IMG/VR virus record: IMGVR_UViG_3300044712_000732
Span: 125,776 to 189,775 of that record
Length of the DNA: 64,000 bases
Source: a virus
Reading direction: 5' to 3' (one strand)
Position numbers and translations under genes: made by a program. Below the pieces are notes generated by a model, which had not been told where the DNA came from, did not search any database, and saw only the letters and a program-made list of their open reading frames with translations. Shown here piece after piece: positions 6,073 to 6,513 of the stretch. The first letter of the stretch is position 1, and each line of letters starts with the position of its first letter.

Positions 6073-6513
6073 TTATATATTAATATTAAAATCTCGTTTT
6101 ATTCTAATTTTTTCTTCTCGATCAAAAATAGAATTTTTTTTATCATACAGTTTTTTTCCTTTGGCAATACAAATTGTTACTTTACAAAGACCTTGTTTAT
6201 TAACAAACATATTCAAAGGAATTATTGTTAATCCTTTTTCTTTTATTTTGACTTTAAGTTTTTTTAATTCTTTTTTTGTTAATAATAATTTTTTTGGTCG
6301 TTTTGGATCATGATTAAATTGATTTGCAAATTCATATTCATCAATATGACAATTTACTAAATATAAATCGTTTCCTGTAAACGAACAAAAACTTTCAGAT
6401 AATGATGCTTTACCCTTTCTTATTGATTTTATTTCTGAACCCACAAGCTGAATCCCCGCTACGATTTCATCTTCTATAAAAAATTCGTAGTATGCTTTTT
6501 TATTTTTTATCAT
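6073..6513 (-). CDS. smpB: SsrA-binding protein SmpB
   Basis: Full-length match to the SmpB pattern: AYYEFFIEDEIVAGIQLVGSEIKSIRKGKASL...RPKKLLLTKKELKKL...GLTIIPL...IAKGKKLYDKK..R.KR. Confidence 0.9.
   Translation of the reverse strand: MIKNKKAYYEFFIEDEIVAGIQLVGSEIKSIRKGKASLSESFCSFTGNDLYLVNCHIDEYEFANQFNHDPKRPKKLLLTKKELKKLKVKIKEKGLTIIPLNMFVNKQGLCKVTICIAKGKKLYDKKNSIFDREEKIRIKRDFNINI

Follow-up and report, generated by a model that had tools for sequence, protein, structure and literature searches.

A full-length SmpB gene in a low-GC huge phage and the search for its tmRNA partner

Does a huge phage that carries smpB also carry its own tmRNA? The question is raised by a stretch of viral DNA 64,000 nucleotides long (IMG/VR record IMGVR_UViG_3300044712_000732, positions 125,776 to 189,775; the whole stretch is called the window here). 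It contains a gene for SmpB, the SsrA-binding protein, and no detectable gene for transfer-messenger RNA (tmRNA, the product of ssrA). A sequence-only reading of the window had offered two explanations: the phage has its own ssrA elsewhere, or its SmpB acts on the tmRNA of the host. This is the right framing. The explanation favoured here, at a probability of roughly 0.6, is that the gene encodes a functional, anciently acquired SmpB of a huge phage infecting Bacteroidota, which would act in canonical trans-translation with a phage tmRNA located elsewhere in the genome. The gene in question is the following.

6073 to 6513, minus strand: smpB, SsrA-binding protein, full length with a basic C-terminal tail (Pfam, NCBIfam and PDB matches; AlphaFold2 model compared by Foldseek; ratio of nonsynonymous to synonymous substitution rates, dN/dS)

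In the list of open reading frames (ORFs) of the window, this ORF runs from ATG to TAA and has 146 codons for amino acids (aa). It encodes a full-length SmpB. A profile search matches the product to Pfam PF01668 with E = 1e-52 (178.3 bits, cutoff 27); SmpB residues 2-142 align with positions 2-141 of the profile, which has 143. Two NCBIfam equivalog models score well above their cutoffs: NF003843 (179.5 bits against 130) and TIGR00086 (174.2 bits against 119.1). Fifteen distinct SmpB sequences in the PDB match the protein, the best being Thermotoga maritima 7ljp (E = 1e-40). Structure prediction by AlphaFold2 from an alignment of 23 sequences gave a model with a mean predicted local distance difference test score (pLDDT) of 80.7. 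It shows the OB-like beta-barrel typical of the family, and residues 126-141 form a C-terminal helix. When this model is compared with the PDB by Foldseek, the best 21 matches are all SmpB with a probability of 1.00; they have target-normalised template modelling (TM) scores of 0.62-0.80 and root-mean-square deviations (rmsd) down to 1.8 A, and the next matches have E>0.1. The earlier description of a full-length, well-conserved SmpB is thus borne out by sequence families, structures and an intact C-terminal tail, and the lack of an SmpB fold, which that reading had named as its refutation, is not observed.

SmpB of the window is 39% identical to E. coli SmpB in a pairwise alignment; the E. 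coli reference is identical to PDB chain 6q98_5. The hinge is kept, with E. coli K131-G132-K133-K134 represented by K118-G119-K120-K121, preceded by A117. Mutagenesis in E. coli has established that D137-K138-R139 is needed for tagging. The equivalent motif in the window protein is D124-K125-K126, and H136 is replaced by Y123. Residues implicated in binding the tRNA-like domain of tmRNA in E. coli SmpB are E31, L91, N93 and K124; L91 and K124 are retained as L77 and K111. The 23-sequence alignment has 38 invariant columns, and G119, K120, L77 and K111 are among them. The tail extends 25 residues beyond GKK, which is a normal length; it is basic, and it is predicted to be helical from 126 to 141. 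The tail comparison proposed in the sequence-only reading, made here with E. coli SmpB, therefore shows an aligned hinge and D-K-K motif and a basic tail of ordinary length. E. coli W147 aligns with E134; this tryptophan is likewise not kept in the cellular SmpBs of Bacteroidota.

Two types of tail ending occur in the clade. The ending 'EEKIRIKRDFNINI' is found in the window protein (tail region 6073-6140) and in the homologues P0002, P0004, P0018, P0022, P0025 and P0027. The remaining clade members, including the lineage relatives P0007, P0009 and P0011, have the cellular-like ending 'KDxKRDxxR'. P0007 is 84% identical overall to the window SmpB, yet it has the other tail type, which suggests that recombination has taken place within smpB. 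Comparison of smpB with an 86%-identical relative gives a dN/dS of 0.135 at an unsaturated dS of 0.59; the gene is therefore under purifying selection.

SmpBs of this lineage, with identities of 68-91%, come from many metagenomes. The lineage is monophyletic with 70% bootstrap in a neighbour-joining tree of 149 aligned columns; in the same tree, bootstrap is 100% both for the Lak clade and for one phage clade linked to tmRNA. Cellular Bacteroidota never group to the exclusion of the window lineage. Of the 80 best cellular matches among representative genomes of GTDB, 79 come from Bacteroidota, with 46-58% identity; the matches were retrieved by alignment-derived peptide patterns, which biases the set toward similar sequences. 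The named matches in an unbiased protein search are likewise Bacteroidota. These relationships fit an ancient acquisition of smpB from a host of the Bacteroidota type, and they also fit repeated, independent acquisition by different groups of huge phages. The phylogeny proposed earlier as a check on host derivation is therefore consistent with a Bacteroidota-type origin, while the deep branches of the SmpB tree are not resolved at 149 columns.

For both the exact window SmpB (P0001) and the exact protein encoded at 59115-59618 (P0133), the recorded source is a contig of 501,337 bp. The window therefore represents about 13% of a genome of roughly half a megabase. Judged by these records, the phage genome exceeds 200 kb and belongs to a low-GC huge phage of about 0.5 Mb; the GC content of the window is approximately 24%. 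An A1-like DNA-transfer protein (PHROG 1745, E = 8.6e-134) has its best matches in phages of Cellulophaga, Flavobacterium and Maribacter (Flavobacteriia), and the host is most likely a member of the Bacteroidota. Other replication and DNA genes in the window encode a DNA polymerase and a helicase. Mobile endonucleases of the HNH, GIY-YIG and LAGLIDADG types are present. Further enzymes encoded in the window are a glucosaminidase and a denV-like glycosylase. Among the approximately 57 window ORFs scanned, neither ribosomal-protein genes nor any other cellular core gene was seen, and no capsid, portal or terminase gene was recognised among the ORFs scanned. A 349-kb contig of a relative which shares the 59115-59618 family has baseplate and sheath genes; relatives reached through this protein lack the downstream tRNA array of the window. 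Window positions 5000-9000 have no megablast match in the deposited phage collection, and single-protein search found no close relative in IMG/VR. The earlier claim that this SmpB is phage-encoded agrees with the half-megabase contig and with the DNA-transfer, polymerase, helicase and homing-endonuclease genes around it. One relative, P0122 (MCK9416742.1, in the 86%-identity cluster of P0004), is on a 10.9-kb contig that was submitted under the name 'Candidatus Dojkabacteria bacterium'; this is probably a phage contig mis-binned into a metagenome-assembled genome (MAG) of the Candidate Phyla Radiation (CPR).

The sequence-only reading had seen no tmRNA in the window, and four kinds of search agree. 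ARAGORN with default settings finds 16 tRNAs and 0 tmRNAs. Rfam finds only tRNAs at the gathering threshold, and no match to any tmRNA family at E<=10. An nhmmer profile was built from the tmRNAs collected here and validated by leaving sequences out; with both megaphage tmRNAs described below left out, each was still the top match (E = 3.8e-5 in 540 kb and E = 6.6e-6). In the window, this profile gives only T-arm echoes of 17-27 nt at known tRNAs (<=3.4 bits, E>=0.38), and across 1.44 Mb of collected loci it gives no additional tmRNA. A structural scan for a G3:U70 acceptor and a T-arm 200-520 nt apart, with a sensitivity of 16/19 and about one false hit per 1.26 Mb, has 0 matches in the window. 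The 5' motif of the L071 tmRNA family described below is also absent from the window, even when 3 mismatches are allowed. As had been read earlier, a tRNA-Tyr (62282-62366) has the CCACCA near 62361 as its 3' end.

Several candidates were rejected. Two 'permuted tmRNA' calls appear in the window when ARAGORN is run with -ps85. The call at 61711-62168 (tag DPDKIENL*) was judged to be an artefact, as it spans two real tRNAs and has no G3:U70; the call at c26511-26906 is starred as low confidence and was also judged to be an artefact. A tmRNA call in L001, a locus which extends past the left end of the window, overlaps tRNAs (16799-17217), and there is no Rfam tmRNA at that position. Three orphan T-arm elements (61713-61803, 62035-62115 and 63761-63832) are tRNA-like folds of 75-94 nt without alanine identity. 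Each has an acceptor stem and a good T-arm together with aberrant D and anticodon regions, and none has G3:U70; the 'anticodon' loop of the element at 61713-61803 has 13 nt. None of the three is called by ARAGORN, nor by the Rfam tRNA model with the cutoff loosened to E<=10; degenerate tRNAs and tRNAs with an intron are among the possibilities.

How much weight these negatives carry depends on where other huge phages keep their tmRNAs. Lak-C1 (MK250029.1) is complete at 540 kb, and default ARAGORN finds 30 tRNAs and 0 tmRNA in it. Rfam, however, identifies a full-length tmRNA at 182,229-182,625 (L099 35229-35625, minus strand; RF00023, 49.4 bits, cutoff 47, E = 1.9e-17) with a tag ending in ...DDEIDFRMAA*. 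ARAGORN labels it 'permuted' when the threshold is lowered to 90%. The smpB gene of Lak-C1 is at about 471 kb, 289 kb away from the tmRNA. Two suppressor tRNAs with the anticodon CTA are found near this tmRNA. A second case is L092 (IMGVR_UViG_3300028797_000116), in which a tmRNA at 7352-7792 lies within an array of 24 tRNAs (Rfam, 61.9 bits). It has G3:U70 and a tag frame ending in ...NCVAFA*, and it is missed by ARAGORN even with relaxed settings. About 6.4 kb downstream of it, at 14215-14414, is a partial match to OLE RNA (RF01071, 109 bits, E = 2.3e-27) covering model positions 284-595, which is unexpected in a viral contig.

ARAGORN with default settings thus misses two bona fide AT-rich megaphage tmRNAs that Rfam finds, those of Lak-C1 and 3300028797_000116. 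ARAGORN is the tool behind the tmRNA calls in the huge-phage literature; because of these misses, the published tmRNA counts for AT-rich huge phages are probably too low. Mar_Mega_1 and phage G have one tmRNA each.

Elsewhere the two genes are close neighbours. A tmRNA is found within 10 kb of smpB in 21 of the 75 IMG/VR smpB loci. A distinct phage tmRNA family of about 405 nt occurs near smpB in L039, L058, L070-L073, L082, L083, L087 and L088. Its members have the form 5' GGGGAUGC...UUGAUUUCAGG (the 5' GGGGAUGC is also given with UUGAUUUCAGGURUCAGGG), and their tags end in ...ATSxVxVA, for example GNVYNNMEIAGILATSKVAA or ATSEVAVA. In most loci the tmRNA is directly upstream of smpB; in L087 and L088 it is 4-7 kb from smpB, inside a tRNA array. 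In several loci the tmRNA lies in a tRNA array, and the contigs with this family are up to 298 kb long. A blastn search of the INPHARED phage collection with this family, to which L071 belongs, gave no match. Because smpB-ssrA linkage varies by clade, and because the window is about 13% of the genome, the absence of a tmRNA from the window is weak evidence that the phage lacks one.

If the favoured explanation is correct, smpB would have been captured long ago from a Bacteroidota-type host, as its sequence relationships suggest, and would then have been inherited within the phage lineage in a fixed neighbourhood under purifying selection. By analogy with established SmpB biology, the protein would bind the tRNA-like domain of alanyl-tmRNA. 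When a ribosome has stalled on a broken or non-stop mRNA, the protein would move with EF-Tu into its empty A site, where the C-terminal tail would probe the vacant mRNA channel and license trans-translation. Host mRNA is presumably degraded during infection, and the demand for translation would be extreme; ribosome recycling would then be sustained by extra SmpB in combination with the IF-3, the YqeY and the dozens of tRNAs of the phage. The partner tmRNA is rather likely to be encoded by the phage itself. It would lie in the approximately 87% of the genome beyond the window, probably in or near a tRNA array, as in other megaphages; the part of the right-hand array that continues past the window would be a prime candidate location for ssrA.

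A number of observations weigh against this explanation. There is no tmRNA in the 64-kb window or in the 2.8 kb past its left end, which includes a second tRNA array. Rfam models find none within 10 kb on either side of smpB in 16 loci of the lineage, in a run that recovered the Lak positive control. Two of the residues implicated in tmRNA binding are changed in the window protein, E. coli E31 to V18 and N93 to T79; cellular Bacteroidota SmpBs have the same states at these positions (V/I at 31 and T at 93). The clade-specific tail ending 'EEKIRIKRDFNINI' is unlike the cellular consensus 'KDxKRDxxR'. A parallel is LR756501, a complete genome of 735 kb with 59 tRNAs and an intact smpB, the product of which is the closest to the window SmpB among deposited phage genomes (53.5% identity). 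Three methods that are independent of Rfam (ARAGORN, the structural scan and the nhmmer profile) detect no canonical tmRNA in LR756501; smpB without ssrA may thus be a real state in huge phages. Two relaxed calls in that genome were rejected: the one at 195,710-196,028 is inside an ORF and has no T-arm, and the one at 229,021-229,325 overlaps a tRNA. The tRNA array of LR756501.1 also contains two tRNA-like elements on the minus strand, of 102 nt (366,483-366,584) and 165 nt (366,906-367,070). Both have perfect acceptor stems with G3:U70. The first 10 bases of the 102-nt element (GGGCUUGUUU) are the same as in the L092 tmRNA, and the element is too short to contain a tag ORF.

These negatives, together with the lack of a tmRNA in the tRNA arrays L090, L091 and L095 (found by using an HNH endonuclease as an anchor), favour an alternative in which there is no phage tmRNA. 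SmpB would pair with the tmRNA of the host, either boosting ribosome rescue once the supply of host SmpB becomes limiting or redirecting or tuning host trans-translation, and a Bacteroidota-like SmpB could plausibly recognise the tmRNA of a Bacteroidota host. This alternative is unlikely, given that only about 13% of the genome is covered, that smpB and tmRNA are so far apart in Lak-C1, and that megaphages generally carry one tmRNA. The LR756501 negative was obtained by non-Rfam methods, including a program which misses AT-rich tmRNAs, and the G3:U70 elements of that genome might be non-canonical partners. It is similarly doubtful that the lineage as a whole keeps smpB under selection with no tmRNA of its own and runs SmpB on host tmRNA or on a non-canonical phage tRNA-like RNA. 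If this were true, the virus would supply only the protein half of trans-translation, controlling ribosome rescue during infection, and LR756501 would be a second example of smpB without ssrA.

An antagonist or decoy, which would bind host tmRNA or ribosomes unproductively and so block trans-translation or a tmRNA-dependent host response, is improbable. The unusual tail ending and the replacement of W147 by E134 could be read in its favour, and phages do interact with tmRNA status according to the review by Janssen and Hayes, as it is cited in PMC7162821. Nevertheless, the hinge G119 and the D-K-K motif for productive tagging are kept and the tail is normal in length, basic and helical. Close relatives of the lineage (P0007, P0009 and P0011) have an ordinary tail, W147 is not conserved in cellular Bacteroidota SmpB either, and there is no other sequence sign of lost function. 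It is very improbable that the gene is not phage-encoded at all, being an ordinary cellular smpB on a fragment of a small, AT-rich bacterial genome, or on host DNA that became joined to phage DNA at a prophage edge or through misassembly. Prophage edges with the host smpB-ssrA pair do account for many 'phage' smpB records, for example StauST398-5, and an 86%-identity cluster includes one entry labelled 'Candidatus Dojkabacteria'. The same neighbourhood, however, recurs in independent assemblies from different samples, and smpB lies among phage genes and redundant tRNA arrays split by homing endonucleases. The ORFs scanned include no cellular core genes, there is no adjoining tmRNA as at prophage edges, and no cellular SmpB is more than 58% identical. 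The least credible reading is that of a decaying passenger, a recently captured host gene without function in the phage. It is effectively refuted by the selection and conservation data: the dN/dS of 0.135, the 38 invariant columns, and the intact full-length ORFs and retained synteny in relatives that are 68-91% identical.

SmpB in huge phages is already published, and the window adds one more lineage. The presence of tmRNAs and SmpB in huge phages is stated by Al-Shayeb et al. (2020, Nature 578:425, PMC7162821), and the supplementary GenBank files of that study have SmpB annotated in at least 8 genomes. By tblastn, SmpB is found in 68 phage records. Identities to the window SmpB are 44-46% for all Lak megaphages, 45-53.5% for LR756501/03/04 and 42% for LR745206. 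In IMG/VR, SmpB relatives are encoded on 75 viral contigs, and at least 14 of these contigs are >200 kb.

The phages of Al-Shayeb et al. such as LR756501 and LR756504 resemble the window phage in having a full-length SmpB, a genome of >200 kb, many tRNAs, initiation factors and further translation genes, and several of their SmpBs likewise have Bacteroidota-like best matches. They differ in that their SmpBs are only 45-53.5% identical to that of the window, which belongs to a separate low-GC lineage. In PMC7162821 tmRNAs and SmpB are reported together, whereas in the window SmpB was found without a tmRNA. The Lak megaphages of Prevotella (MK250015-MK250029) resemble the window phage in genome size (about 0.54 Mb in Lak), in low GC content (about 26% in Lak), in having tRNA arrays and in their Bacteroidota host, the probable host group of the window phage, and in neither is smpB next to a tmRNA. 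Lak SmpB forms a distinct clade (44-46% identity to the window SmpB, 100% bootstrap). Lak-C1 has the tmRNA at 182,229-182,625, unlike the window, and Lak phages have suppressor tRNAs, none of which were seen in the window. The IMG/VR smpB-ssrA cassettes (L039, L058, L070-L073, L082, L083, L087 and L088) also combine SmpB with tRNA arrays; unlike the window, they have a tmRNA near smpB, and their SmpBs are 39-50% identical and in separate clades. Cellular Bacteroidota SmpBs, for example those of Maribacter and Bacteroidales MAGs, are chromosomal and are the closest cellular sequences at <=58% identity; the phage clade, unlike them, includes the distinctive C-terminal ending. Prophage-edge genes are also annotated as phage SmpB in databases. 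In Staphylococcus phage StauST398-5 (NC_023500), smpB is at 37-459 with an adjoining tmRNA, a host smpB-ssrA pair at the attachment site. Such cases are temperate phages of 40-50 kb and, unlike the window, do not represent an smpB maintained by the phage.

The window phage thus represents one more lineage among the huge phages with ribosome-rescue genes, and supports the view that translation capacity is maintained during infection. The arrangement of smpB and ssrA varies: some clades have the two genes linked, Lak has them far apart, and LR756501 possibly lacks ssrA. The question of whether any virus encodes SmpB alone bears on how phages exploit the ribosome rescue of the host.

The neighbourhood of smpB, a block of minus-strand genes, includes the following features.

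4772 to 5263, minus strand: NT5C-type 5'-deoxynucleotidase, kept in the same minus-strand block (Pfam PF06941, E = 8.6e-13)
5226 to 6020, minus strand: LAGLIDADG homing-endonuclease-like ORF directly downstream of smpB (Pfam PF14528, E = 1.2e-13)
6500 to 6832, minus strand: 110-aa ORF directly upstream of smpB, no Pfam match, kept in relatives
6829 to 7800, minus strand: family-9 glycosyltransferase (GT9), upstream neighbour kept across the lineage (Pfam PF01075, E = 1.4e-13)

Pfam matches among the further neighbours are an HD-domain protein, a PolB-type exonuclease and DnaJ. The earlier description of a block of DNA-metabolism genes is roughly right. The stop of the 110-aa ORF overlaps the start of smpB by 14 nt; because of this overlap, the two are likely to be translationally coupled. 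A small upstream ORF of 106-110 aa is at the same position in the relatives L001, L002, L005 and L006. GT9 is syntenic with smpB in L001, L005, L006, L007 and L187-L190. In the LAGLIDADG position, the relatives have an ORF of about 300 aa, with a faint LAGLIDADG signal in L005 and L006. The order GT9, small ORF, smpB, LAGLIDADG-like ORF, NT5C is kept wherever context exists in independent assemblies, which include GCA_964520455.1 (a 235-kb contig), JGI 3300020048 (a 155-kb contig) and Logan and JGI contigs. A promoter scan around smpB was uninformative, with 42 matches against 41.7 expected.

Other translation-related features, which the sequence-only reading had already linked with smpB, are real according to Pfam and ARAGORN.

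19252 to 19785, plus strand: IF-3, both domains (Pfam IF3_N, E = 9.5e-20; IF3_C, E = 5.2e-32)
57581 to 57997, plus strand: YqeY-like protein of the GatB/YqeY family (Pfam PF09424, E = 3.9e-17)
60836 to 64000, plus strand, running off the right window end: tRNA array with an embedded HNH endonuclease ORF (ARAGORN, Rfam)

IF-3 is also found near smpB in the relative L007, and YqeY is also recorded for L003. The right-hand array has 16 complete tRNAs, one tRNA cut by the window end, the three uncalled tRNA-like elements and 0 tmRNA. A second array (L001 16601-18827) begins about 90 bases to the left of window position 1 and has at least 11 tRNA genes, including those for Lys, Phe, Ser, Trp and His. 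Public assemblies of the window phage, among them Logan contigs with window genes, break within both of these flanking arrays. At the right end, an exact 27-mer (63891-63917) is not matched in JGI metagenome contigs, a 22-mer of the last complete tRNA matches 13 unrelated contigs that have a tRNA-Arg and no resemblance to the window, and the ORFs at this end, which are spurious, have no recorded counterpart. Both contain an HNH-type ORF (window 62421-63125, plus strand, and L001 17207-17827); the two are 64% identical and share the C-terminal motif CxxC...HINGINxDxRxxNLRILCPNCN. Homologues are found in the tRNA arrays of the huge-phage contigs L090-L095; the search anchored on this endonuclease used poor automatic peptide patterns and recovered 6 loci. 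An ARAGORN tRNA call at window 61389-61463 has a 2-nt 'anticodon' (tc) and no assigned identity; it scores 36.3 bits with the Rfam tRNA model.

Window 31120-38057 (plus strand) has five consecutive ORFs which are apparently paralogous mobile-endonuclease genes in tandem. Those at 31120-32439, 34150-35454 and 36174-37301 have HNH or endonuclease PHROG matches; 'integrase repeat unit' (INT_rpt) matches are at 35545-36177 and 37305-38057. The cumulative GC skew has its minimum at approximately 28000-31000. Genes to the left of this region are mostly on the minus strand and those to the right mostly on the plus strand; the region could mark the point from which transcription diverges, or a possible origin of replication.

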